Of a stretch of 38,329 nucleotides of DNA, positions 3,001 through 38,329 are shown one piece after another. Origin of the DNA: a virus (lineage: Duplodnaviria > Caudoviricetes). The notes below the pieces were generated by a model. It was given only the letters and a program-made list of their open reading frames with translations, had not been told where the DNA came from and ran no database searches. Position numbers and translations under genes: made by a program. The stretch is taken from positions 1-38,329 of the IMG/VR virus record IMGVR_UViG_3300044723_002769. One strand, written 5' to 3'. The first letter of the stretch is position 1, and each line of letters starts with the position of its first letter.

Positions 3001-6000
3001 GTTCTAAAATCAAATATATTAACTGGTATAGAAGCGGGTGCTGATGTTACAGATGCAACTAATGTAGCAGATGCAGGTGCTTTGATGGATACAGAAGTTG
3101 ATGTAAATATTAAGACATTAACATTACCTGCTAGTACAACAATCACAACATTCGGTGCTTCATTAATAGATGATGCTGATGCCGATACTGCTTTGGCTAC
3201 ATTAGGAGGCACTACTACCGGAATTGCTTTACTTAAAGCAACGAATCCAAGTACGGCAAATTCTCCGGCTGTACCTTTATTTCCAAGACTTAATGCTGAT
3301 AATACTGTGGATTATTTAACTGCTTCACTAATGCTAAGTGCTATTGGTGGAGGAACAGGCGGAGGTTCAGTAACAGAAGTAACAGGCGGTGTAGGTTTTA
3401 CCGTTAATAATGGAACTACTACACCAGATTTAACTTTAGATTTAAGTCAAATTAGTAGTGCAACTTTGGCTACTACTGATTCATTAGTTGGATTTGTAGC
3501 AGGTACGGGTGCAGGTTCTAATTTAAAGGCATCAAGTACTATTGGAAATATTCTTTCTCTTATTGAAATTGCTGATGATACATCCCCACAATTAGGTGGG
3601 AACTTAGATACTAATGGTCATAATATTAAAATTGATGATGCACACGGTATTTTAGATGAAGATGGTAATGAATTATTACTTTTCACAAGTCCCGAATCTA
3701 GTCCTGTAAATTATATAAATATAGCAAATAAGGCAACAGGCAATGCACCAATATTAGCGGCAACAGGGAGTGATGCTGCTGTATCATTAAACATTAGACC
3801 AAAGGGTACAGGTTATGTTAATTTCGATGAAGGAGATATACAAATAGGCACAACTGTTCTTAATGCTACTGCTGCCGAATTGAACGTATTGAACAATTTA
3901 CCTGCTGAAAGTTTCGTTGGAAGAAATGCTGATACAGGTTCAGCAGAAAGACTATCAGTAGCAACCGCATTAACACTATTAGGTGTTACTTCGGGTGCAG
4001 AACCAAACGTTAGAGCGAATTGGAATGAAACAACTTCGTCTAGTGATGCCTTTATTCAAAATAAACCTGATGTTGACAATGTATCAGTTGCTAATTTAAA
4101 AACTGCATTAGCAGGTGGTTTTGGTGATGGTGCGGTTACTATTGGAGATAATGATGACATTGTTACTATTGGCAATAAATTAATAGTAACAGGAGATTTA
4201 GTTGTTAGTGGAACTACAACTACAATTAATACTGCTACTATTGAAGTAGAAGATAACATTCTACAACTAAATACTACACAAGGTACTCCTGATACTGCTA
4301 CTGCGGCTACAAGTGGTATAAGCGTTTATCGTGGTAATGGTATAACACAAGCATCTCTTATATTTGATGATGCTGATGATACTTGGGATTTGACTAATAA
4401 TCTTACTCTTGGTGGAGTATTAACTGCTACAAGTCCGGTATTTACAACTCCTGATTTGGGAACACCTTCTGCAATTAATCTAACTAACGCTACAAGTCCT
4501 CCAACTTGGAATCAATCAACAAGCGGTAATGCTGCTACTGCTACTAAGATTACTACTATAACAAATAGTAATATCGTTCAATTAACTGATGCTCAAACAT
4601 TAACAAATAAAACAATTAATGCGAGTAATAATACTCTAAGTAATATTGCTAATAGTGCTTTAACTTATAGTAGTATAACAATTAATGGTTCTGCTGTATC
4701 TCTAGGCGGTTCAGTTAACACTCCTGATACTGTTTATTCTCTCCCAACTGCCTCTTCAAATATTTTAGGTGGAATTAAAGTTGGTTCTAATTTAACAATT
4801 AGTAATGGTGTATTATCGGGAACTGCTGATACTGTTTACACTCACCCTACACATGATGGAGATGATATAGATATTGACACAACTGCATTAACAGGTGCAA
4901 CTGTTATTTCAGATTTAGACCTTAATATAACTACTGATACATTAGGACACGTTACGGATGCTAATGCTACAATAGCAACAAGAGAATTATCATTAACAGA
5001 CTTAGGTTTTACAGGAGATGCTGATGCTACTGATGATTTAACTGCGGCAGAAATTAGAACTTTAGTTGGAACAGGTAATGGTGGTGTTTTGCCGTCAACA
5101 GGTTCATTAGGAACTTTCTTGAAGCATGATGGAACATTTGGCGCGTTACCTGCTAAAATGGCCTTTACTGTAAGAGACAGTTCAGATACAGATGTTCTTA
5201 TTCCTGATGCTAGATTTATTAAGTTTAATGAAGGTAATGGTTTAGGTATTGCTTTTACAAATACAAATACAGGAGATACAAGCACTCCATTTGAGTTAAC
5301 CTTCCAAGTTAATGATGATGGTATAGGAGCAGACCAATTAGCAAATACTGGTGTTACTGCGGGTTCTTTCACAAGCGCAGATATTACAGTTGATGCACAA
5401 GGAAGAATAACTGCTGCTTCTAGTGGTAGTGGTGGTGGTGCTTCTGCTATTGGTGGCTTAGATGATGTATTAGTAGATTCAACTAATTATATTGATGGAT
5501 TCTTACTTCAAACAGATAGTAATGGTTTAGCGCCTACTACATCTTTTACAGGAAATAATTCAGGAAATATCGGTCTTGGAAAAGATGTATTTACTTCTAT
5601 GACTTCGGGTTCAAATTACAATGTCGGCATAGGTTATAGAGCCTTAGATGCTTTAACTACCGGAGATAATAATATCGCCATTGGATTAGATGCTGGTTCT
5701 TCTGCAACAACAACTTCAGGGGGTGTGTATATAGGGGAGTCAAGTGGTAGACTCGCAACAGGTTTTTACAATACATTACTAGGCCGAAGAACAGGCTACT
5801 CTCTTACAAGTGGGAGTTATAATGTATATCTAGGGGTTTCGGCAGGTGAGAATAATACAACAGGTTCAAATAATACATTCGTTGGTACATTTGCAGGGAA
5901 TAATTCGGGAACGACCTCTAATAGTGTGTTCTTAGGTTATCAATCCGGACAACTAGTTAAAGCGAGTGCAAATATTGCTATTGGGGGTTTAGCATTAAAA

Positions 6001-28269: not shown

Positions 28270-28512
28270 TTATATTCCCCCCATTTGTTCTACCATAAAG
28301 TCTTGAGAGTTCTCAAACTCATGGAATGCTTTATGTCCGGCTATGAAACCACCTGCGTGTCTTTTAGTTCCCATGAACTCTTCTAGACAAACAGGACAAC
28401 ATACCTTGACTATTTCTGCTTGTAAGTAAAAACCATCTGTTGCAATAACATTCATTATATTACCTACATCTTCTTCTATTAAATCATCTATTTCTGTATC
28501 TTCTTCACTCAT
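28270..28512 (-). CDS. C2H2-type Zn-finger protein
   Basis: CPVC...HKAFH; between the E1 and JAMM genes. Confidence 0.65.
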   Translation of the reverse strand: MSEEDTEIDDLIEEDVGNIMNVIATDGFYLQAEIVKVCCPVCLEEFMGTKRHAGGFIAGHKAFHEFENSQDFMVEQMGGI

Positions 28513-29138
28513 ACATTCACAACCATTTTATCTGTTACATCATTATTATCGTTAAACCAACGTTGAATCCATTGAGTCGCAATACCTGCTATGGCAATGT
28601 GCATAGTACTAATATCTTTAGCAGAACCATCCCAATCACCGCCTTGACAACTGAATGAACCTTCTGCACCAACAAGTAAGTCAGGTATTAATGTGGGATT
28701 AACTTTGTATGAAATCAATACTCCGTTCCTACCTTGCGCTCTAAGGTCTAACCACTTAACAGGACTATCTTCACCATGTCCTGTTTTGTAAAGTAGTCTT
28801 CTTGCTGCTAAGTTATCCACACAGCAGATTACTAAATCATATTTCTTTTCAGTTAATTGTTTAGCAGTAAGGACTTGATGTTCTCTTTTGTCGTTTAATG
28901 CAGGTTGTATTCCAATCTTGTTTCCCAATACTCTAACTTTAGATTTACCAATATCTTCAACATTAAAATTCTGATAAGACAAGTTCTTTTCTTCTACCTT
29001 ATCATCATCGTAAATTGTAATATCATACAACGCTTGTCTTTCTTCACTAATTCTTTCTAGGAAAGATGCTAGATAACTACCTATTCCACCTGCCCCAATT
29101 ATCAATAATTTTCTTTGTTTTAATTTCTTTGTTTTCAT
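28509..29138 (-). CDS. E1-like (ThiF/MoeB/UbaA family) Ubl-activating enzyme
   Basis: IIGAGGIGS, DDDKVEEKNLSYQ, IGKSKV, CVDNLAAR; candidate catalytic Cys in SCQ. Confidence 0.92.
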   Translation of the reverse strand: MKTKKLKQRKLLIIGAGGIGSYLASFLERISEERQALYDITIYDDDKVEEKNLSYQNFNVEDIGKSKVRVLGNKIGIQPALNDKREHQVLTAKQLTEKKYDLVICCVDNLAARRLLYKTGHGEDSPVKWLDLRAQGRNGVLISYKVNPTLIPDLLVGAEGSFSCQGGDWDGSAKDISTMHIAIAGIATQWIQRWFNDNNDVTDKMVVNV

Positions 29139-29420: not shown

Positions 29421-30353
29421 TTATCTTACTCCATTCATTATATTTTTTGTTGTATATGACCTTAACTTAGTTTTGTCTAAATTAAGATTTACACACATCT
29501 TTCTTGTTTTTTCTCTTATTGTTACTTCACTAACTGTACTACAATCTCCAAGTGCAACTTGTGTAATACTTTTTGAATTATAATTTTGTCCTACAATCCA
29601 TATTGCTGCTACTATATCGCTAACAGTAAAAGTCAAATCAAAATTATCATAACATTGTTTTGCATAATCTACAAAATTATAACAATCCATTCTAAAGTTT
29701 CCCTCTATCTTCTCTTTAAATCTAGTTTTTTCTCTAGAGTTTAGTTTGACTATAATACTAGAAACCATTTCGTCTGTATTTAATTGACTAAATATGTGTG
29801 ATTTACCGAACTTTCTAGTTACTCTTTTTGATGTTCTCATAATATTTTTTACGGGAACTTTAATTTTCTTAGAATAATCTTTTAGGGAAACCGGAATACC
29901 TCTTTCCTTTAGTACATAATATACAATACCTGCTGCTACGTCATCTAAAGGTAAACCTCTAACTAAATGTTCGTCTTTTAATATTCTATATTTTTTAATA
30001 ACTTCATTTTTTAATTTACCACCATTGTAATATGAAAGGTATATACCCGTAGCAACTAACACTTTATTTTCTGAATCATTATGATTTGTTCTCATATTGT
30101 TTGTTCTCAAAGCATAATCAGTTTTACTTTTAACATCCTTTCTTTCAATAATAGAACCTAATTTATATGAGTCAGTCGAGTTTTGAAAGTAATTATTTCT
30201 GATGTAACCTTTACTTTTTTCTGTTGAGAAAAAATTTTTATTAGTTTCTTCAAATATATTTACTGATAATATCAAACCACAATCAGCACAAATAGTTTCA
30301 CCCATTCTTTCATCGAAAGTTGTAGTGGTGGATTCGCATTCAAAACACTTCAT
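29421..30353 (-). CDS. tfb: Viral transcription factor B (TFIIB-like)
   Basis: N-terminal Zn ribbon CFEC...GETICADCGL; cyclin-fold repeats VAAGIVY and TQ..LG..STVSEVTIR. Confidence 0.88.
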   Translation of the reverse strand: MKCFECESTTTTFDERMGETICADCGLILSVNIFEETNKNFFSTEKSKGYIRNNYFQNSTDSYKLGSIIERKDVKSKTDYALRTNNMRTNHNDSENKVLVATGIYLSYYNGGKLKNEVIKKYRILKDEHLVRGLPLDDVAAGIVYYVLKERGIPVSLKDYSKKIKVPVKNIMRTSKRVTRKFGKSHIFSQLNTDEMVSSIIVKLNSREKTRFKEKIEGNFRMDCYNFVDYAKQCYDNFDLTFTVSDIVAAIWIVGQNYNSKSITQVALGDCSTVSEVTIREKTRKMCVNLNLDKTKLRSYTTKNIMNGVR

Positions 30354-30436
30354 TTCATCACCATTATCCTACAACAATCGCTATCTTTAACCCGAAGGTC
30401 GCCTAGTTCTTTTTTACATTTATTACATATTTTCAT
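30350..30436 (-). CDS. Cys-rich micro-ORF (28 aa, MKICNKCKK...DCC)
   Basis: Abuts the upstream stop and has an ATGA overlap with tfb. Confidence 0.45.
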   Translation of the reverse strand: MKICNKCKKELGDLRVKDSDCCRIMVMK

Positions 30437-31819
30437 TTATTCATTCTCCTTCATTCTTTTCTTGTGTAAATATTCATCACACTTTCTTTGACTCCAATGG
30501 TTTAACTTAGACCTATCTAATCTAGCCATAACTCTACTTCCATTTTTCAAATCATCGTCTATTAACGGTCTAATTGTATAGAGATGATGTGCTGCTACAT
30601 CTTCATTTACCAATGCTAATGCCCTCGCTGTTAGTTGGTCTCCGATACTAGCACCCTTAGAAACATTGTCAATACAAATAGAACCGGAAAGTTTCATACC
30701 ATGCCAATTTCCTCTTTCGTCAGAGAAACCAACTATTTGATGAGTACTAACATCTTGATTACCTCTTTTCATACCATCACCTGTATAAGTAACAACCCAA
30801 TCACAATACTTACCATGAACAAATAATGCTTTATTCTTAGGGTTTCTGAATTGTACGAAGTCAATCTGAGGTGTTTCTGCTGCAATATCGAACAACAATT
30901 TAGTTGCCCTATCTTCTACAATATCAGAAGTTCTATGTTGTAATAACCATTGAGTCATTTTCTCTAATTCTGTTGCGGTTGGTTTGCTACCCATTGTTTG
31001 TTCCCAAAGGAACTCGTTAGTAACACCAACATTCCATTTCTTACTCCTCTTCTTACCGAACTTAAAGTAATCAATAAAGGTACTCAATTCTTTAGTAGAT
31101 AGAACACCCCAAACACTGTCAGATATTTCTAATACACATTCGTCATCACTAATTAGTTTAGTATTGATAACAACCTCTGTTTGTCTAAATAGATGATTAA
31201 AATGATATGGTGTTCTATTTTCCAAAGCATATAGGACATTATGAGGAAAGGTAGTAACTTTTACTGCGTAAGTAGTTAATTGTTTTGAACACTTTGTTAG
31301 TGCTGCTCTTAGAATTATCTTACTAATCGCTTTAACTACATCTGCTTTGTTTCTAGGTAATCCGTTAATATAATATCTTTTATTAGTGCGACCATAGAAT
31401 ATTTTACTTTGGCCGTTGTAATATTTGAAAGATATTGTATTCATAAAATTATCTTTATCGGTATCGTAAAGTTTGTGAGGAAAAAGAACTTCCTCGACTT
31501 TCTTAGAAAGAGATTCTAGAACAGGGTCAGAACCTTCCACAGAAGTATTCATGTGAGTTCTTCTACAAGTAACAATTCTTTCACCAAACGAATTTAGATT
31601 TTTTGTTTTATAATCATAAACTTTGTCTGAGTTAGACAAATGTCTGTATGAGTCTAAACCCTTTTTTTTAGCAATCACGGCACTCTTAGTTCTGTTTATA
31701 TTTCGCTCATATAGTGTGCGGAATATTTTCTTGTTGTTATTTTCGATTCTTAATAATAGACTTGATGTAATTTGATTTCCACCATCACCTACTGTTGGTA
31801 TTATATATTTTATTTTCAT
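30437..31819 (-). CDS. Large protein with putative C-terminal E2/UBC-like domain
   Basis: Predicted helix, 4 strands, then H-x5-GSICID and a helix, resembling the E2 active-site region; clustered with Ubl, E1 and JAMM. Confidence 0.5.
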   Translation of the reverse strand: MKIKYIIPTVGDGGNQITSSLLLRIENNNKKIFRTLYERNINRTKSAVIAKKKGLDSYRHLSNSDKVYDYKTKNLNSFGERIVTCRRTHMNTSVEGSDPVLESLSKKVEEVLFPHKLYDTDKDNFMNTISFKYYNGQSKIFYGRTNKRYYINGLPRNKADVVKAISKIILRAALTKCSKQLTTYAVKVTTFPHNVLYALENRTPYHFNHLFRQTEVVINTKLISDDECVLEISDSVWGVLSTKELSTFIDYFKFGKKRSKKWNVGVTNEFLWEQTMGSKPTATELEKMTQWLLQHRTSDIVEDRATKLLFDIAAETPQIDFVQFRNPKNKALFVHGKYCDWVVTYTGDGMKRGNQDVSTHQIVGFSDERGNWHGMKLSGSICIDNVSKGASIGDQLTARALALVNEDVAAHHLYTIRPLIDDDLKNGSRVMARLDRSKLNHWSQRKCDEYLHKKRMKENE

Positions 31820-32075
31820 TTTTAATTTCTCCTTTTATTATTTGAATATTATTTCTTTTTTGTTTTTGTGTAAGGTGTGTTTTACAATAAAGACTATCTC
31901 TATATTTAATTTTCTTACACCTTTCACCTTTGTTAGTAATCCCGACACACCTTTCTTCCGGTGGTGGATTTCTAATACAAGAAAAACACAAATTAGTTGT
32001 TGAGTTTTTTCTTGATGTATGATTTCTTGTTCCTAATTTTTCATTACATATTCTACATTTCATTTTTATTCCCAT
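31785..32075 (-). CDS. Double Zn-finger protein
   Basis: CRIC...CFSC plus C.G.T.KG.RC...YC..H. Confidence 0.65.
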   Translation of the reverse strand: MGIKMKCRICNEKLGTRNHTSRKNSTTNLCFSCIRNPPPEERCVGITNKGERCKKIKYRDSLYCKTHLTQKQKRNNIQIIKGEIKNENKIYNTNSR

Positions 32076-32092
32076 CTTTTTTTTTTATTTTT

Positions 32093-32195
32093 AATGGGCA
32101 TCCCACCCATTTGATAACAACTCCCGTTATTGGGATTACTTAACAGTGCAATGCACCATATAGTAATTACCGATAGATACTATAATCTATGGTAA
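32093..32195. other. Cluster of abutting hairpins downstream of the Ubl gene
   Basis: ATGGG/CCCAT, TCCC/GGGA, TTACT..GTGCA/TGCAC..AGTAA and TTACC.ATAGAT/ATCTAT.GGTAA. Confidence 0.4.
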
Positions 32196-32216
32196 GATAG
32201 TAACACTTTAACAGAA

Positions 32217-32426
32217 TTATTGGTTTCCGCCAACAATTGCTTGAACAAGGTTAACAGTTTCAACATCATTCCAATTTATGTCGCTAATAGATTCACGGCT
32301 AACCATGTCATTATCAACATAAACCCAATGAGTTGGGTGTTCTGCTATCTGTTCAATCATCTCAGATGTCGTAACATCTAATTCTGTATGTCCTCTTTCA
32401 TTCATTATTCTCAATTTCATTTTCAT
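32217..32426 (-). CDS. Ubiquitin-like (beta-grasp) protein with GG plus 2-aa extension
   Basis: 69 aa; strand-strand-helix-strand layout (WVYVDN); ends VNLVQAIVGG-NQ. Confidence 0.8.
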   Translation of the reverse strand: MKMKLRIMNERGHTELDVTTSEMIEQIAEHPTHWVYVDNDMVSRESISDINWNDVETVNLVQAIVGGNQ

Positions 32427-32454
32427 TACTTCCTTTTTTTTGTTTCAACTATTT

Positions 32455-32721
32455 TTAAGACTGTGTTGACTGTCTCGCTTGATTAAGCGTGTTCTCTAAC
32501 GATGATATGTAAGATTTTAATTCTCTCTTATCACCGAGGAGTTGTGTTTGCATTGCTTCATAGACTTCTATCTTTTGACGCAAATCTTGCACTGTTTTCT
32601 CAAGACTTTGAGCGTATGTTAAAAGATTTGTGTAATCTCCTTTCATGCTCTCAATAATCTGTTCACTAGTTATTTCCGGTTGTTTTTCTTCTTTCTTTTC
32701 TTCTTTCTTAGCCATTTTCAT
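32455..32721 (-). CDS. Coiled-coil protein
   Basis: Heptad-like Q/E/K/L pattern. Confidence 0.6.
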   Translation of the reverse strand: MKMAKKEEKKEEKQPEITSEQIIESMKGDYTNLLTYAQSLEKTVQDLRQKIEVYEAMQTQLLGDKRELKSYISSLENTLNQARQSTQS

Positions 32722-33712
32722 GCACCTCGTTATCTCCTAAGAGAATATCATTACGTCTTCGTAAGATATTAATAAGACTATCGCATTGTTTGGGTGAAGG
32801 TCTCTCCATCCTCACAATTTTCCTTCTCATATCTCTTAGAAATCTTCTTTCCCAATTATTTTGGGCTTCGCCTGTTGTAAAAGGTCTAATTCCGAAATAT
32901 TTACAACAATGTAAAAACTTTTGTTGGTCTAAATCATTATCATTTACTGTAACTAATTTCTTAGTAATATATGAATCAACATTATCTAAATGAATTATTC
33001 TATTAGAATCAATGGAGTCCATCTTATTTACAATATCCAAATGTTTTTGCATATTGATTTTAAATAAAACTAAATCTTCCATAAGTTTATCATTTGGAGT
33101 TCCTCTTTTACTATCTCTTTGTCTTCTAGGATTGTCGGGATGATTCCATCTCCAAACAATAGAAGCCATTTCATAGGTAGGAGTACCATACAAACCATTA
33201 CTACTTTTACGAATAAAGGTCTCAGGTCTGTAATCTTTAACAGATTCTTCCCAATATGTTTTTCCTGTTTTCTTAACATTGATTCTCAAATCTAATTCTT
33301 TAATTTCATCAAAAGTATTAGTAAACTCTTTGCCATTTTCTTCCCACCAAGCATCTTTAATTAAAGTTTGAACAGCAGTCTGCTTCCAATCTTCAATCAT
33401 CTTCTCAGTAATAGTTCTCCTATCTATTTTCAATTTCTCTTCCATATGTCGAAGAACCATCCAATTATTAATACAACTTGAACCTACAATTTCTAGTATT
33501 CCATTTTCAGTATTTTCAATTTCAAAATGATAAACTATATCGTGTCCGCAAAGACAAGAATTAGGATGTCCTGAAACATGATTACTTGTTGTTTCATTAG
33601 GAGACTGTTTCCAAACATTTCCTGTAATTCTCCATTCCTTTTTTGCTTCTTCATAATCATTAGAATTAGATAATGCTAGTAATTTATTTGTTAATCTACT
33701 GTAAGTAGCCAT
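32708..33712 (-). CDS. Conserved viral protein with CxCGH...VGSxC Zn motif
   Basis: CLCGHDIVYHFEIEN...VGSSCI. Confidence 0.6.
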   Translation of the reverse strand: MATYSRLTNKLLALSNSNDYEEAKKEWRITGNVWKQSPNETTSNHVSGHPNSCLCGHDIVYHFEIENTENGILEIVGSSCINNWMVLRHMEEKLKIDRRTITEKMIEDWKQTAVQTLIKDAWWEENGKEFTNTFDEIKELDLRINVKKTGKTYWEESVKDYRPETFIRKSSNGLYGTPTYEMASIVWRWNHPDNPRRQRDSKRGTPNDKLMEDLVLFKINMQKHLDIVNKMDSIDSNRIIHLDNVDSYITKKLVTVNDNDLDQQKFLHCCKYFGIRPFTTGEAQNNWERRFLRDMRRKIVRMERPSPKQCDSLINILRRRNDILLGDNEVHENG

Positions 33713-33942
33713 TACTCCATCCTCTCATTTTGACGTTGTTCTCTAAGAAATCCATCTAGTAGCATATCTATATTCTTATACAATGCTTCGGGTAATCCAC
33801 CAATTGTTTTACGGTTTAATGATAACCAAATCAAATGATTTTGGTTTAATACAACCTTAACTTCATCATCCTCATTCATCGTTATTACTAACGGAGGCAT
33901 CTCATTATCATTCACCATTCTAAATTCTACATTTCTTTCCAT
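33712..33942 (-). CDS. Hypothetical protein
   Basis: 76-aa ORF in the operon. Confidence 0.6.
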   Translation of the reverse strand: MERNVEFRMVNDNEMPPLVITMNEDDEVKVVLNQNHLIWLSLNRKTIGGLPEALYKNIDMLLDGFLREQRQNERME

Positions 33943-33944
33943 AT

Positions 33945-34187
33945 TTATTCCTCTTCTTCCGATGCTCTAACCCAATGATTATTTAATTCTCTAGCAAAAA
34001 ACAGTTCTTCGGTATCAGCGAACCAACATACTAGTCCGGTGTTAGAAACTTTACTTCTTACTATTTTGATTACTGATTGGTTATACTTGTTAATCCAAGT
34101 AACACCTCTCAAATCTTCAATACCATCCGGTATTGGGGCATTCTTTGCTAATTCTTCATTTCTTCTTATTCTTTCTTCTATATTCAT
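33945..34187 (-). CDS. Hypothetical protein
   Basis: 80-aa ORF with GGAGG SD. Confidence 0.6.
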   Translation of the reverse strand: MNIEERIRRNEELAKNAPIPDGIEDLRGVTWINKYNQSVIKIVRSKVSNTGLVCWFADTEELFFARELNNHWVRASEEEE

Positions 34188-34190
34188 TTT

Positions 34191-34400
34191 TTATTCCTCC
34201 TTATACATATCAGTGTAGTCTTTTAATTCATTGACTACACCATCCATTGTTGCACCTATTACTGTAAGTGCATCATCTAGAATTACTCTCCTCATCATGG
34301 ATAGATGAGGGAGTTTTTCATATGCTTCCACTAATTTATTGTAGTGGTATTTCATTGCTTCTAGATTTTCTATTAATTCTTCGGTCATTCCTCTTCCCAT
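34191..34400 (-). CDS. Hypothetical protein
   Basis: Short helical ORF. Confidence 0.55.
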   Translation of the reverse strand: MGRGMTEELIENLEAMKYHYNKLVEAYEKLPHLSMMRRVILDDALTVIGATMDGVVNELKDYTDMYKEE

Positions 34401-34672
34401 AGTTCATCTTCTCCAAGAAGGGTTTTTTGTTCTTTGAATCTATTAATGACTTTTTTTAGATTCTTAGGGCTAGTTGCTGTGATAAAGTTTTGTCCTCCCT
34501 TTAAGAAAAGTACAATTTTATACACATCTCCGTTTTTAGTAGTGGGGTAGATAAACTTAGTTAAATCATCATTTGGTTTTAATTTACTCCAAGTGAATGC
34601 TTGAACATCGTCTATACAAACAACACCATTCGTAAATCTTGCATAGTGTTTTTTACTAAAATCTTCAACCAT
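34385..34672 (-). CDS. Small beta-rich (PH-like) protein
   Basis: Start placed at MVEDFS after the GGAGTGA SD; pattern shared with two other ORFs. Confidence 0.55.
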   Translation of the reverse strand: MVEDFSKKHYARFTNGVVCIDDVQAFTWSKLKPNDDLTKFIYPTTKNGDVYKIVLFLKGGQNFITATSPKNLKKVINRFKEQKTLLGEDELWEEE

Positions 34673-34682
34673 AATTACCAAC

Positions 34683-34799
34683 TCAATCACTCCGAGTAGG
34701 TTTAGGGTCAAAACATTTCTTACATTGAAAACCGTGTTCATTGCTCCAAATCTTTCTAACCTTTTTACAGGTTATACATCTTTCAACAATAACGTTCAT
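34683..34799 (-). CDS. Small Zn-ribbon protein (38 aa)
   Basis: MNVIVERCITC...CKKC; read by hand. Confidence 0.55.
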   Translation of the reverse strand: MNVIVERCITCKKVRKIWSNEHGFQCKKCFDPKPTRSD

Positions 34800-34803
34800 A
34801 GGA

Positions 34804-34986
34804 TTACTTCCTATTAATTCTAATACTTTTTCGATGCAACATTAGGTTTCCTAGATGTTGGTAACGTGAAATGGGATTACCATTTGCGTTCAACACTGGT
34901 TCATCCGGTAAACATAATGGTCTTGGTTTTCTTTCACCGCTTTCTATTTGCTGTTGTATTTTAATTCTATATTCTTCTATATTCAT
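34804..34986 (-). CDS. Hypothetical protein
   Basis: 60-aa ORF with AGGAG SD. Confidence 0.55.
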   Translation of the reverse strand: MNIEEYRIKIQQQIESGERKPRPLCLPDEPVLNANGNPISRYQHLGNLMLHRKSIRINRK

Positions 34987-35270
34987 TTTTTATTTCTCCT
35001 TTTGCTTTCTTTTATCATTTGTTCTAATGTAAGGCCATAATCCATATGACCTTCGGGTAGTGAAGATAACCTACTACCTTGAAGATTTCTCAACATAGAA
35101 ATAATATTAGCAGCCGCTTTAGTAAAACGTTTATCTGCTACACTATCTCCTTTTGGTACTCCTCTTTCCCTAACCTTTTCAATAGAAACAATAAAATTTT
35201 CATTGTTAGGGTTGTGTAATATTGCTCTTATTATTTCATATTCTGCGTGTTTAACATTCTTAAAGCGCAT
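34983..35270 (-). CDS. Hypothetical basic protein
   Basis: Start placed at MRFKNVK after AGGAGG. Confidence 0.55.
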   Translation of the reverse strand: MRFKNVKHAEYEIIRAILHNPNNENFIVSIEKVRERGVPKGDSVADKRFTKAAANIISMLRNLQGSRLSSLPEGHMDYGLTLEQMIKESKRRNKK

Positions 35271-35844
35271 CCTTAATCCTCCTAAAATCTGCAAGCATAT
35301 CTGCATAAACTTGTTTTCTTTCTTTTGTTTTAATTTCAGTATGGTTTTCAGGCCACCAATATGGAGGATTAGTTTTCCATTGTCCTAATTTCCATTTATC
35401 TTCCAAATAGTAATTACGATATTTTTCTACAACTGACATATTGTCAAAATCTTTTATTTTTCTACAATTCATATCTTCTGATATTGCTACTGCGAATGGA
35501 GTTAAACCTATGTCGGGCAGGTCATCAATAACATTAGTCCATAGGTCATTATGTAATAATAATAATTTCTGAACTTTATGTTTCTTTCCGTATCTGACAG
35601 TATATTCAGCACATAATGCTGCGGTATGTGTTAGTAGGAAAGAGAAGTTTTGTTGACTTTCCCTAGCCCAAATAGTGCAGGGATGATTTAACATTACAGG
35701 TTTGAATGGGACATTTTCATATCCCAAATGGTCTGCTATTGTTGATAACATTTGTAAACTTTCAGTTGGCATTTTAACAACGTGTTTATCACACATCATC
35801 TTAGCACATTCTTCTGCATCTTCTGATAAAATAAATATATTCAT
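35260..35844 (-). CDS. Pyrimidine-dimer DNA glycosylase-like protein
   Basis: MNIF.L...CA...CDKHVVKM..E..QMLST, NHPCTIWARES..N, EYT.RYGK.H. Confidence 0.8.
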   Translation of the reverse strand: MNIFILSEDAEECAKMMCDKHVVKMPTESLQMLSTIADHLGYENVPFKPVMLNHPCTIWARESQQNFSFLLTHTAALCAEYTVRYGKKHKVQKLLLLHNDLWTNVIDDLPDIGLTPFAVAISEDMNCRKIKDFDNMSVVEKYRNYYLEDKWKLGQWKTNPPYWWPENHTEIKTKERKQVYADMLADFRRIKDAL

Positions 35845-36158
35845 TTTAATTCCTCTATTTCTATTTTAGGTGTGGAAATTACAATATCATCGTCGGTTTG
35901 TCCGACACCCACATTATTGTCCCCAGTGGTTAATTCTTTTTCGTTTCGCACACTTTTTCTAAACTTTCTAATATCTTTTAACATTACTAATAATGTTACA
36001 CTAATAACAGAAATAGAAATTATCTGTACATTTTGAAATAGTAATTCTAAATTACTATCTGTCTCTTGTCTTAGTTCTAATTTCGTTGAGTTAAAAATTC
36101 CCAAAAAACCAAAAAAAAGCAGGGAAGAGTAAGTTAAGACTTTTCTCAACTTACTCAA
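35841..36158 (-). CDS. Two-TM membrane protein
   Basis: Two hydrophobic segments. Confidence 0.55.
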   Translation of the reverse strand: MSKLRKVLTYSSLLFFGFLGIFNSTKLELRQETDSNLELLFQNVQIISISVISVTLLVMLKDIRKFRKSVRNEKELTTGDNNVGVGQTDDDIVISTPKIEIEELK

Positions 36159-36321
36159 CCCCCTCTACGTCTATACCATGTTTATCAAAGAAATCTACTG
36201 AATTAATATATTCAATATAATCTTCCATAGAACATGGTAAGCATGGTTCTATTTCAATACCACCTTCTGCTTGTTGCACTGCTATTATTCCTCTATCATT
36301 ACATTCTTTACACTTAACCAA
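36151..36321 (-). CDS. Small Zn-finger protein (56 aa)
   Basis: TTG start; CKECNDRG...CLPC; read by hand. Confidence 0.5.
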   Translation of the reverse strand: MVKCKECNDRGIIAVQQAEGGIEIEPCLPCSMEDYIEYINSVDFFDKHGIDVEGVE

Positions 36322-37753
36322 TTCTTTCACCTACATAATTTAAAGTCTTCTTTGCTCTTGTGATAGCCACATAACAAAGGTTAGTCTCTTGTTGTTTATC
36401 TGCATCAGACTTAGCCATAGGATGAGGCATAAGTTGAGGCTCTAAAATCCAAATGTTATCTTTTTCTAATCCCTTTGCTTTGTGAATAGTAGCAAAGATA
36501 ACGCCACGTTTCTTTCCATCACCAAAGATTGCTTTGATGTTGTCGAGAATACCTTGAACAGTATTTGCATTTCTAGTAAGATAAGTAATACATTGTCTCT
36601 TATCGTCAAGAGATTGAACTAATCTTTCCTTGTCTGCTTTTCTGAATACATCCATTTGGTATTCGATATGTTTGTTAAGTAATGGTAAGAAATCAGATAC
36701 TAACATATCATTATTCTTAGTTACTTTACCAACTAGTAATTGTAAACTGTAACCAATGTCTCTACCTAATACAAAGGCAGGTATTCCTTCTGAGATTAGT
36801 TGGAAGCAATTCTGAATTAGAGGAGCATTTGTTCTGCATAAAACCATATCGCCAACTTTAGGGTCAAAGGCTACATTAACATTTACTTCACCATCTTCTG
36901 CATCTTCTCTACATGAGTAATCACTAAAGAAACGATTTGCCTCTGCAACTACTGTCTTAGGACATCTCCATGTAATGCTAAGAGTAAACTCTTTTACACC
37001 TCTAGGAGATTGAGATAATGTATCTTGGAATAATTTCATTGATGCTGAATCAGCACCTCTGAATCCATAGATTGCTTGCTTTGGGTCTCCAACTACAATC
37101 ATTCGTCCACCATTACAGGTCTTCAAAATTAATTGTCTTTGGACTTCATTGAAATCTTGTGCTTCATCAACAAAGACTACATCATAATGTTTGACATTCA
37201 TATCTAATTCGACAGGTAGCCAAATCATATCATCGAAGTCAACTACTGATAAATCCATACAATTGTTTTTAATTGTGGGTAAGTATTTCAAAGCATTATT
37301 CATTTCTAATACACCATCGAACTCGATATTGTATTCTTGCATGATTGAGATAATTGAATCTCTATCGTCCCATTCAACCATTGATGATTTAATCAGACTA
37401 ACTAATTTAACCAATTGTGTCTTTGACTTAAATTTCTTACCAAGTAAATTCTCTACAATATTGTAGGTTTTCTTATTATCAATTTTACAGTTTCTTCTTT
37501 CTGATTTAATCGCTGCAAGTCCTAAACTGTGAAACGTTTTTGCTTCACAATCGTCAGGTAGTTGGTTTGCTAATTCTTGTTGGATTGCTTTATTAAATGC
37601 TAAAAAGCACTTTCTGCCAACAACGTTTTCAGCACCATTTACAATTGTAAAGGTTTTACCTGTACCTGCACCTGCATAGACCATCATGTGAGAATCACCG
37701 TAAGTCATTTCTTTCCATATTTCTTCTTGTTCATTTGTTCCTTTTATTTTCAT
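36314..37753 (-). CDS. UvrD/Rep-like SF1 helicase
   Basis: AGAGTGKT, VDEAQD, VGDPKQAIYGFRGA, TIHKAKGLE, YVAITRAK. Confidence 0.95.
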   Translation of the reverse strand: MKIKGTNEQEEIWKEMTYGDSHMMVYAGAGTGKTFTIVNGAENVVGRKCFLAFNKAIQQELANQLPDDCEAKTFHSLGLAAIKSERRNCKIDNKKTYNIVENLLGKKFKSKTQLVKLVSLIKSSMVEWDDRDSIISIMQEYNIEFDGVLEMNNALKYLPTIKNNCMDLSVVDFDDMIWLPVELDMNVKHYDVVFVDEAQDFNEVQRQLILKTCNGGRMIVVGDPKQAIYGFRGADSASMKLFQDTLSQSPRGVKEFTLSITWRCPKTVVAEANRFFSDYSCREDAEDGEVNVNVAFDPKVGDMVLCRTNAPLIQNCFQLISEGIPAFVLGRDIGYSLQLLVGKVTKNNDMLVSDFLPLLNKHIEYQMDVFRKADKERLVQSLDDKRQCITYLTRNANTVQGILDNIKAIFGDGKKRGVIFATIHKAKGLEKDNIWILEPQLMPHPMAKSDADKQQETNLCYVAITRAKKTLNYVGERIG

Positions 37754-37789
37754 TTTTATTTCCTCTTTTTGTTATTGTTATATTTGGGA

Positions 37790-38329
37790 ATGTGATAGTT
37801 AGGGAAATTGGGTCGCACCACACGACTAGATAGGAGATGTCAACACGTTACCGAACAGAGAACGAATTTTCCAATTTATTATTATCTAAAACCTAACTCA
37901 TAAAGATTCTTATTTTCTAGTTCCGAAGGTAGTAAGACAAGAATCGTTGAGTGTGAAGGGACATACTACTATGGCTAAACAGTAGTATGCCCCAAAGTCG
38001 GGTAAGCCCCGAAAGTGATAAACTTTGAATTTGAAAGGGGAAAGAAAAAACGTACTATGCCGCTTTACACGAAGGTGGTATGATAACGTTAGTCATGTGT
38101 TACCAATGATATTTTATTGCTCATGCCGACTACTAATATTACTTACAAGGGCATAGTCTCGAAAGACTATGACTAAAACTGCTTTCATCATTATTGCGCT
38201 TAGTTCTTTGGAAATACCTTTTCGAAAGAAAGCATTTTTTAGATTGCCATAAACCGACTAAGAATTAATTCGCTCTTGAAGAACTTTCACTACTTCACTC
38301 CCGAAGGCATTTTTCGCTACTTGTAATTC
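37790..38329 (-). ncRNA. Putative large structured non-coding RNA(s), family unassigned, probably 5'-truncated by the window end
   Basis: No ORF of 60 aa or more. Several UUCG-capped hairpins, stems with G-U pairs valid only on the - strand, long-range helices and an internal U-tract at about 38030-38052. Confidence 0.65.

Follow-up and report, generated by a model that had tools for sequence, protein, structure and literature searches.

A large structured RNA in group B magroviruses, apparently an undescribed RNA family of archaeal viruses

Large ornate RNAs are known from bacteria and from bacterial phages; as a class they are marked by very high abundance in cells and by protein-free homo-oligomers in vitro. 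Two other RNAs offer points of comparison for the magrovirus RNA reported here: RNase P RNA, which cleaves the 5′ leaders of pre-tRNAs, resembles it in size and rough helix order, and the prohead RNA (pRNA) of phi29 is smaller. According to the available text of PMC12286853, L9.3 of OLE RNA switches among four-base palindromes, with an intermolecular bridge seen by cryo-EM, and ROOL and GOLLD RNAs often lie near tRNA islands. Set beside the RNAs described in that text, the magrovirus RNA is like OLE in being large and multi-domain with a four-base loop word that switches among palindromes, and like ROOL and GOLLD in being a sizeable virus-borne RNA whose kissing contacts covary and whose inserts differ. 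However, it has no sequence or model match to OLE, which is bacterial and about 600 nt long, whereas the magrovirus RNA is viral, archaeal-hosted and 311–590 nt long; the dimer is demonstrated for OLE, and here we infer it. ROOL and GOLLD, which it does not match in Rfam, belong to bacterial phages, whereas the carriers here are archaeal viruses without tRNA genes. The RNA represents a genuine family in archaeal viruses, apparently not described before; judged by its covariation signature, this family is of the ornate homo-oligomeric kind and a member of no known family.

The carrier is one virus record of 38.3 kb, analysed over its whole length (hereafter the window). Its genes encode a TFIIB zinc-ribbon protein (TFB), an RFC-like ATPase, an ATP-dependent ligase, a UvrD helicase and a two-gene split family-B polymerase. 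A split polymerase marks the group B magroviruses, which infect marine Poseidoniales archaea (PMC5434244 and PMC10768690, available text). By its split family-B polymerase, TFB, RFC, ligase and SF1 helicase, the window is a fragment of a group B magrovirus (Magrovirales, Aoguangviridae-related), and this gene set bears out the archaeal-virus origin suggested by an earlier, sequence-only reading of the window. ARAGORN found neither tRNA nor tmRNA in the 38.3 kb, and promoter and terminator scans stayed at chance level. A ThiF/E1-like gene (28509–29138, minus strand) and an ORF of 69 aa with a GG motif near its end (32217–32426, minus strand; no Pfam match) perhaps form a ubiquitin-like pair, to judge by resemblance. 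The palindrome ACCATATGGTT recurs in many copies in both RNA-bearing and sister clades, often within CAAAG...CTTTG arms (L008 1400–4300; upstream regions of L002, L004, L006 and L009–L020), and these are likely, putative binding sites of a viral regulator; in L008 such a site precedes each of two tandem paralogous 152-aa ORFs (3149–3607 and 3769–4227), for which no family match was found.

The large RNA occupies a non-coding stretch upstream of the helicase gene, on the same strand as the helicase operon. The features of this region are as follows.

36314–37753, minus strand: UvrD/SF1 helicase gene, downstream of the large RNA and outside it; context and anchor of the homologue search
37799–37952, minus strand: third unit, with a GGUUU...AUAAA internal-loop motif in common with the large-RNA closing stem
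37958–38030, minus strand: next small RNA unit, a leader hairpin and a long hairpin with a GCC-containing loop; no RNA-contig cover
38024–38030, minus strand: ACUC/AUUC boundary word, which opens each unit's leader hairpin; putative processing mark
38036–38329, minus strand: 3′ ~295 nt of the large RNA, from homologues and from RNA contigs running past the window end
38036–38046, minus strand: 3′ strands of the two-part closing stem (the U-rich tract of the earlier reading), from covariation of tail and 5′ region
38052–38061, minus strand: near-invariant word GGCAUAGUAC, from homologue comparison
38071–38076, minus strand: 3′ strand CUUC of the inner long-range helix; its partner GAAG lies beyond the window
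38081–38105, minus strand: 7-bp hairpin with the kissing loop; loop GACUA (38094–38090) is the partner of the leader word
38112–38134, minus strand: conserved block AGUAGU...UAAAA, a small imperfect hairpin and then an A-rich word
38152–38171, minus strand: CAUAGUCU-UUCG-AGACUAUG hairpin, inserted at the periphery in the subclade to which the window belongs and missing from compact homologues
38191–38204, minus strand: palindrome block ACUAA-GCGC-AAUAA; GCGC (38199–38196) is the self-complementary word and predicted intermolecular contact
38205–38229, minus strand: 10-bp hairpin directly 5′ of the palindrome block, with the UUCG at 38223 inside its stem
38297–38311, minus strand: C(UUCG)G hairpin of the variable domain that follows the inner helix, kept in L177, L008, L002 and L179

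Homologues were fetched by helicase-anchored scans, and relatives extend past the window end; L008, with 99% helicase identity, aligns at 88% across the whole stretch. We hand-anchored 22 homologues on common blocks; a contig fetched more than once was counted a single time, and the partial window, L003, L176 and L178 were excluded, as was L192. They bear out the earlier proposal that the minus strand carries a large non-coding RNA of several domains which continues past the window end, and the relatives supply a 5′ part that makes it bigger than the 300 nt first proposed. The missing 5′ ~245–295 nt, seen in L008 (4882–5125) and L177 (2015–2305), comprise the leader hairpin, the closing-stem 5′ strand, the CUUAGCGG hairpin, the AAGAU block and the inner-helix 5′ strand. 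Among the 21 homologues with a 5′ start the element measures 311–590 nt, the one in L008 (4882–5422) being a long example, and its block order is constant from the leader hairpin to the closing-stem 3′ strands. The 5′ part runs from an ACUC/AUUC-opened leader hairpin through closing stem a, a ~12-nt loop UUU...AUAA and closing stem b to AAGAU and the inner helix. Then come a variable multi-hairpin domain, a hairpin, the palindrome block, an optional hairpin, AGUAGU...UAAA and the kissing-loop hairpin, and last the inner-helix 3′ strand, 9–10 nt, GGCAUAG and the closing-stem 3′ strands. The CUUAGCGG hairpin loop is present in 16/21 full-length homologues at varying locations.

Three long-range contacts covary among the homologues: the two-part closing stem, the inner helix and a kiss between the leader and a 3′ loop. 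The inner helix spans 4–6 bp, and four of its positions are all paired in 22/22 homologues by 11 distinct strand pairs, including GAAG/CUUC, GGAG/CUCC, AGGG/CCCU, GCAG/CUGC, AAGG/CCUU, UGAG/CUCG and GAGG/CCUC; a first automatic register had paired 15–21 of the 22, and the registers of seven rows were then set by hand. For the closing stem, a homologue's own tail on its own 5′ region gives −16.6 kcal/mol versus −13.3 kcal/mol for foreign tails, with the own tail ranking only 11th for L008 and 9th for L187. Kiss pairs include UAGUC/GACUA, UUGUC/GACAA, GUGAC/GUCAC, GGUGC/GCACC, GUAAG/CUUAC and GACGG/CCGUU; L177 has just three pairs, and the automatic loop pick was wrong for L004. Permutation tests, which ignore relatedness and use hand-anchored blocks, matched the observed signal in 0/200,000 cases for the inner helix (Watson-Crick count, 11 strand pairs), 7/100,000 for the closing stem (13 lineages) and 115/200,000 for the kiss (10 lineages, one row each). 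Only one strand tolerates changes that yield G-U pairs. The RNA combines the large size (311–590 nt) and the extensive covarying long-range structure by which large ornate RNAs are recognized. Single-sequence folding scores the window part no better than shuffles (z 0.39), so that the evidence for structure is comparative and not thermodynamic; z-scores of 11 full-length homologues are weak as well (−2.1 to +0.4).

Local elements named by the sequence-only reading fared unevenly against the homologues. Its four UUCG words are present (38305–38302, 38226–38223, 38163–38160 and 38073–38070, minus strand) over a background averaging 0.55 per 300 nt, and only 1/126 other 300-nt windows reaches four. 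As loops, the role they had been given, the word at 38305–38302 and that of the CAUAGUCU/AGACUAUG hairpin hold up in homologues and the other two do not, the one at 38073–38070 overlapping the 3′ strand of the inner helix. The CAUAGUCU/AGACUAUG hairpin keeps 8/8 pairs in 5/5 close relatives, with A-U to G-U changes, and the 38081–38105 hairpin keeps 7/7 pairs in 5/5; the C(UUCG)G hairpin at 38297–38311 is replaced by an insertion in L175. The hairpin at 38205–38229 forms 9/10 pairs in the window and 10/10, with changed pairs, in L177, L008 and L175, and most homologues have a hairpin at this position. Other proposed pairings exist as words and are not kept: the closing helix TTACAAG (38326–38320)/CTTGTAA (38149–38143) retains 5/7 pairs in 2/3 spanning relatives, CTTAGT (38262–38257)/ACTAAG (38204–38199) is invariant in three close relatives, hence without covariation, and broken in L002, and the terminal hairpin AACGT (38090–38086)/ACGTT (38053–38049) retains 4/5 pairs in 2/4 close relatives. 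The supposed terminator-like U-rich tract turns out to be the closing-stem 3′ strand and is not U-rich in many homologues. The duplicated motif TAGTCGG...GCAAT has spacers of 6 and 5 nt rather than 4/5, and its first copy is gone in L008 and L175. Kink-turn and box C/D RNAs are marked by a conserved box C word and tandem G-A pairs; by the familiar consensus, a box-C-like word such as the proposed ATGATGA (38191–38185) occurs in just 3/21 full-length homologues, and we rejected that class.

The four bases that precede (A/U)NUAA are GCGC in 11, CCGG in six and GGCC in five of the 22 homologues, and so are self-complementary in every case. This first count searched for palindromes and was circular, whereas an open-descriptor search and the comparison with the tree were not. 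Left open to any of the 16 G/C four-mers, the descriptor matched 42 rows in 408 loci, repeat fetches counted; every row was palindromic and belonged to the RNA-bearing clade, and the palindrome switches about five times on the helicase tree (read by eye, some forks being weak). The simplest reading is that it pairs between two molecules, because four adjacent bases cannot self-pair in one chain, an argument also applied to OLE RNA (PMC12286853); a second exact copy of the element's own four-mer is absent from 21/21 elements. We regard this predicted intermolecular contact as reasonably probable. Such switching is covariation of the kind that, in ornate RNAs, only intermolecular pairing explains; one lineage is without the block. 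By themselves, four base pairs are a weak contact for a dimer. Models of one molecule often pair the palindrome internally (unpaired probability <0.2 in 5/11 homologues), and often pair the block with the invariant 3′ word, which may be the state of the monomer.

Pairing of this kind would also suit an RNA that acts in cis on the early replication operon, as a leader or attenuator. The RNA would then be the helicase transcript's terminated 5′ leader and would switch between a palindrome block paired with GGCAUAG and a free block. A 3–5-bp helix between the pre-palindrome bases and the invariant word is possible in 16/21 homologues, the element always lies upstream of the helicase operon on the same strand, and RNA cover stops near its 3′ end. 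However, the distance to the helicase start varies from ~100 to ~1,900 nt and includes further RNA units or ORFs, L184, L193 and L194 have an ORF upstream of the RNA, the tail covaries with the 5′ end and does not stay U-rich, and the switching of the palindrome is left unexplained. We consider attenuation unlikely and retain intermolecular pairing as the preferred reading.

Further homologues came through a marker independent of the helicase. A 62-aa beta-beta-alpha protein is found only in RNA-bearing genomes (L008 2796–2960, minus strand; L417 8933–9121, plus strand), and its gene fetched 22 loci, of which 14 were new. The large RNA is present in 11 of these 14, the other three having too little flank, and all 22 + 11 homologues fall in one subclade. 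Eight of the 11 have the palindrome block, palindromic in 8/8 (six GCGC, two CCGG); the remaining three, L458, L459 and L465, form the one lineage in which no block is recognisable. A 4-bp inner helix was found in 6/8 and a kiss of 4–7 bp, including new pair types, is possible in 8/8, with the own loop the best kiss partner in only 2/4 later lineages and tied in one. The 62-aa protein is itself a candidate partner of the large RNA; it has no match among Pfam, PHROG, Atlas and PDB sequences and no clear fold match (best Z 4.3), and therefore supplies no evidence of partnership.

The earlier reading could assign no family, and Rfam 15 agrees: the window has 0 matches at E ≤ 1, five loci gave two chance matches, both away from the large RNA, and two full-length elements gave only fragments at E 4–7.6. 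Covariance models of ROOL, GOLLD, OLE, group I and II introns, small ribozymes, SRP and tmRNA found no match, and no conserved word of the hammerhead type, by its familiar consensus, was found. Group I introns interrupt a gene, have splice sites and share a P3–P7 core; with no model match and an intergenic location in the homologues inspected, and with the core order judged against general knowledge, we rejected this class. BLAST against annotated phages returned 25-nt chance matches only. As search patterns, the duplicated motif TAGTCGG...GCAAT hit 119 viral loci and no homologue, the 3′ word hit 16 loci (seven known members and nine chance matches), and a two-gap pattern hit at least 120 loci with only already-known members among the matches listed. 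Genome-wide, CTTAGCGG gave 29 matches versus 16 for the reversed control (16 records), a signal too weak to use. A helicase scan of GTDB genomes returned no Poseidoniales contig, and there was therefore no host genome for homologue search.

A ribozyme built like the RNase P catalytic domain, processing neighbouring RNA units or tRNAs, would be laid out as a closing stem, a second helix, a variable domain and then a pseudoknot joining the palindrome block to the invariant 3′ word. The helix order resembles that of RNase P RNA, the size fits, and the invariant 3′ word follows the inner helix at 9–10 nt, the place expected for conserved region V. Against this, the RNase P model RF00373 has no match at the large RNA in three records (one match at E 0.14 lies elsewhere), the catalytic words CR-I and CR-V, by their familiar consensus, are found in 0/21 homologues, and the would-be P4 is unsupported, showing no compensatory change and falling to two pairs in three lineages. 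We hold this ribozyme reading to be improbable. Still less credible is a small-protein mRNA or tmRNA-like tag whose functional part would be the 25-codon frame at 38191–38114. Five close relatives preserve this frame together with its stop and a 3-nt indel, but it occurs in just 5/24 sequences, and no peptide is conserved family-wide. ARAGORN found no tmRNA, there is no T-arm between the closing helices and no tag frame is conserved, so tmRNA was rejected.

The literature is similarly silent in the texts covered. Fremin et al. 2023 mined viral csRNAs from IMG/VR intergenic regions, with models of 29–151 nt in the available text (PMC10690425). Short pieces of the large RNA could sit there unnamed because the same kind of region was mined; contig identifiers and the invariant word have no match in six supplementary files of that paper. 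The available texts of the magrovirus papers PMC11706807, PMC5434244 and PMC10160649 mention no non-coding RNA, nor do the ICTV profiles (including PMC10768690), and the available text of a genome-language-model preprint (10.64898/2026.09.22.753630) does not mention magroviruses. No such RNA was found in the literature within coverage that takes in few subscription papers.

The large RNA is also present in RNA libraries. Of 20 sequencing runs matched, six are RNA, and four of these, which were picked with this very stretch and come from four 2025 estuary or sediment studies that may be one campaign, were compared with window positions 30000–38329. Contigs of all four metatranscriptome runs cover the large RNA; they carry no strand, ends or level, start at 38060–38105 and, where the overhang is readable, extend past 38329 by 138–272 nt. 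This overhang fits a start near the ACUC word, which lies 243 nt upstream in L008 and about 290 nt in L177. An L008-like strain covers the same stretch in two of the four runs. Elsewhere in the 8.3 kb the RNA contigs gave one 190-nt helicase piece and a few poor matches of ~35 nt. Positions 37760–38059 have no RNA cover in these runs, which proves nothing, because short RNAs get lost in such libraries. RNA libraries can contain DNA, and the element adjoins a repeat-rich non-coding region, as would be expected if it acted at the DNA level, through single-stranded hairpins and protein sites near the origin, and were transcribed in passing. Yet the best DNA runs contain 0.91–1.00 of the query words against 0.26–0.44 for the RNA runs, whose cover is limited to this stretch; G-U changes are tolerated on one strand only; and alternation among three palindromes is not what a protein site would show. 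A DNA-level element is thus very unlikely.

Each record of the RNA-bearing clade has one copy. A sequence-only model matches 4/19 virus records, all of this clade, and 0/15 sister magrovirus records (six of them at least 90% complete), a model that a far-diverged version would escape; the split polymerase is also present in 3/3 sister records tested. The large RNA follows, 0.1–1.5 kb downstream, a (CT)n or (CTA)n tract with inverted TGAGAA/TTCTCA repeats on either side (L008 4728–4765 and equivalents), which, from its sequence, is likely a candidate origin or terminus. That position would suit an RNA that handles DNA, either origin-associated (ARRPOF-like) or forming a prohead-RNA-like ring by head-to-tail leader-loop kisses. 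The magrovirus RNA is like phi29 prohead RNA in being viral, with a covarying non-palindromic loop contact able to link molecules, and phi29 rings are built from four-base non-palindromic kisses (PMC7357161, available text). Unlike phi29 pRNA, however, it lies by the replication operon, and sister viruses share the tract region and replication genes without such an RNA. The type genome of the group encodes ordinary small and large terminase subunits (PMC10768690), and a packaging RNA is therefore not needed. DNA handling thus seems to us a rather unlikely function.

The large RNA heads, or lies within, an array of smaller hairpin units with a common closing-stem motif. Their number varies (window 37896–37799, minus strand; L005 620 and 741; L178 355 and 452; L187 2718; L265 2883), and by their common GGUUU...AUAAA closing stem and ACUC/AUUC boundaries the units, as far as motifs can tell, are a modular RNA array. 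The long hairpin of the next unit has an anticodon-like loop (window 37958–37992, minus strand; L002 5765; L003 122; L005 906; L008 5478; L175 2789), containing GCC in most and GUC in L008 and L175, which makes it a possible tRNA-loop decoy.

A contrast between the clades concerns tRNA. Genes for tRNA occur in 0/9 RNA-bearing records (G001–G003 and G019–G024, two of them at least 90% complete) versus 9/10 sister records (G004–G007, G009–G011 and G014–G016), a single phylogenetic contrast of one clade with another. A chaperonin gene splits likewise (1/6 RNA-bearing versus 6/7 sister records), and codon use shows no clear difference between clades that would explain the tRNA contrast. In the sisters L009, L016 and L017, tRNA-Leu occupies the same place. 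Matches of ~160 nt in sister records G014 (74102–74263), G015 (41900–42061) and G016 (76023–76181) are probably intron-bearing tRNAs.

We propose, with about equal weight for and against, that the large RNA is a self-pairing, compactly folded, RNA-only scaffold or decoy acting most likely on the host translation machinery. It may be cut from a longer early transcript at the ACUC/AUUC words, a step we rate as an even call and propose because the RNA starts right at the end of an ORF in some genomes. Its ends would close into the two-part stem and so protect it, the covarying long-range helices would give a compact fold, and the palindrome contact would probably join copies into a stable RNA-only complex. 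The leader-loop kiss could be made inside one molecule or could link several; in the latter case rings or cages might form, which we find doubtful. The near-invariant words AAGAU, GGCAUAG and CUUAGCGG are putative binding places of a partner, tentatively the ribosome, tRNA or a tRNA-directed defence nuclease. This is the weakest step, and translation is taken as the lead because RNA-bearing records are without tRNA genes and sisters have tRNA-Leu at the same place. A bolder version, which we think unlikely, is that palindrome contacts and head-to-tail leader-loop kisses assemble many copies into a ring or cage made of RNA alone, the first from an archaeal virus, substituting for the sisters' tRNA-Leu(UAA) and tRNA-Arg(UCU) by tRNA capture or as a decoy for an anticodon nuclease. 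The codons UUA and AGA do occur within the near-invariant words where these are likely single-stranded, possibly by chance coincidence.

The finding would place an unrelated family of ornate RNAs in viruses whose hosts are among the most abundant archaea of the sea. Its natural compact versions, 311–330 nt long and including L264 1177–1488 and L190 1519–1847, are well suited to cryo-EM, and three natural palindrome alleles, many kiss alleles and a sister clade without the RNA offer built-in controls. Together, these allow a test of whether archaeal viruses evolved RNA-only oligomers independently, and of what their targets may be.
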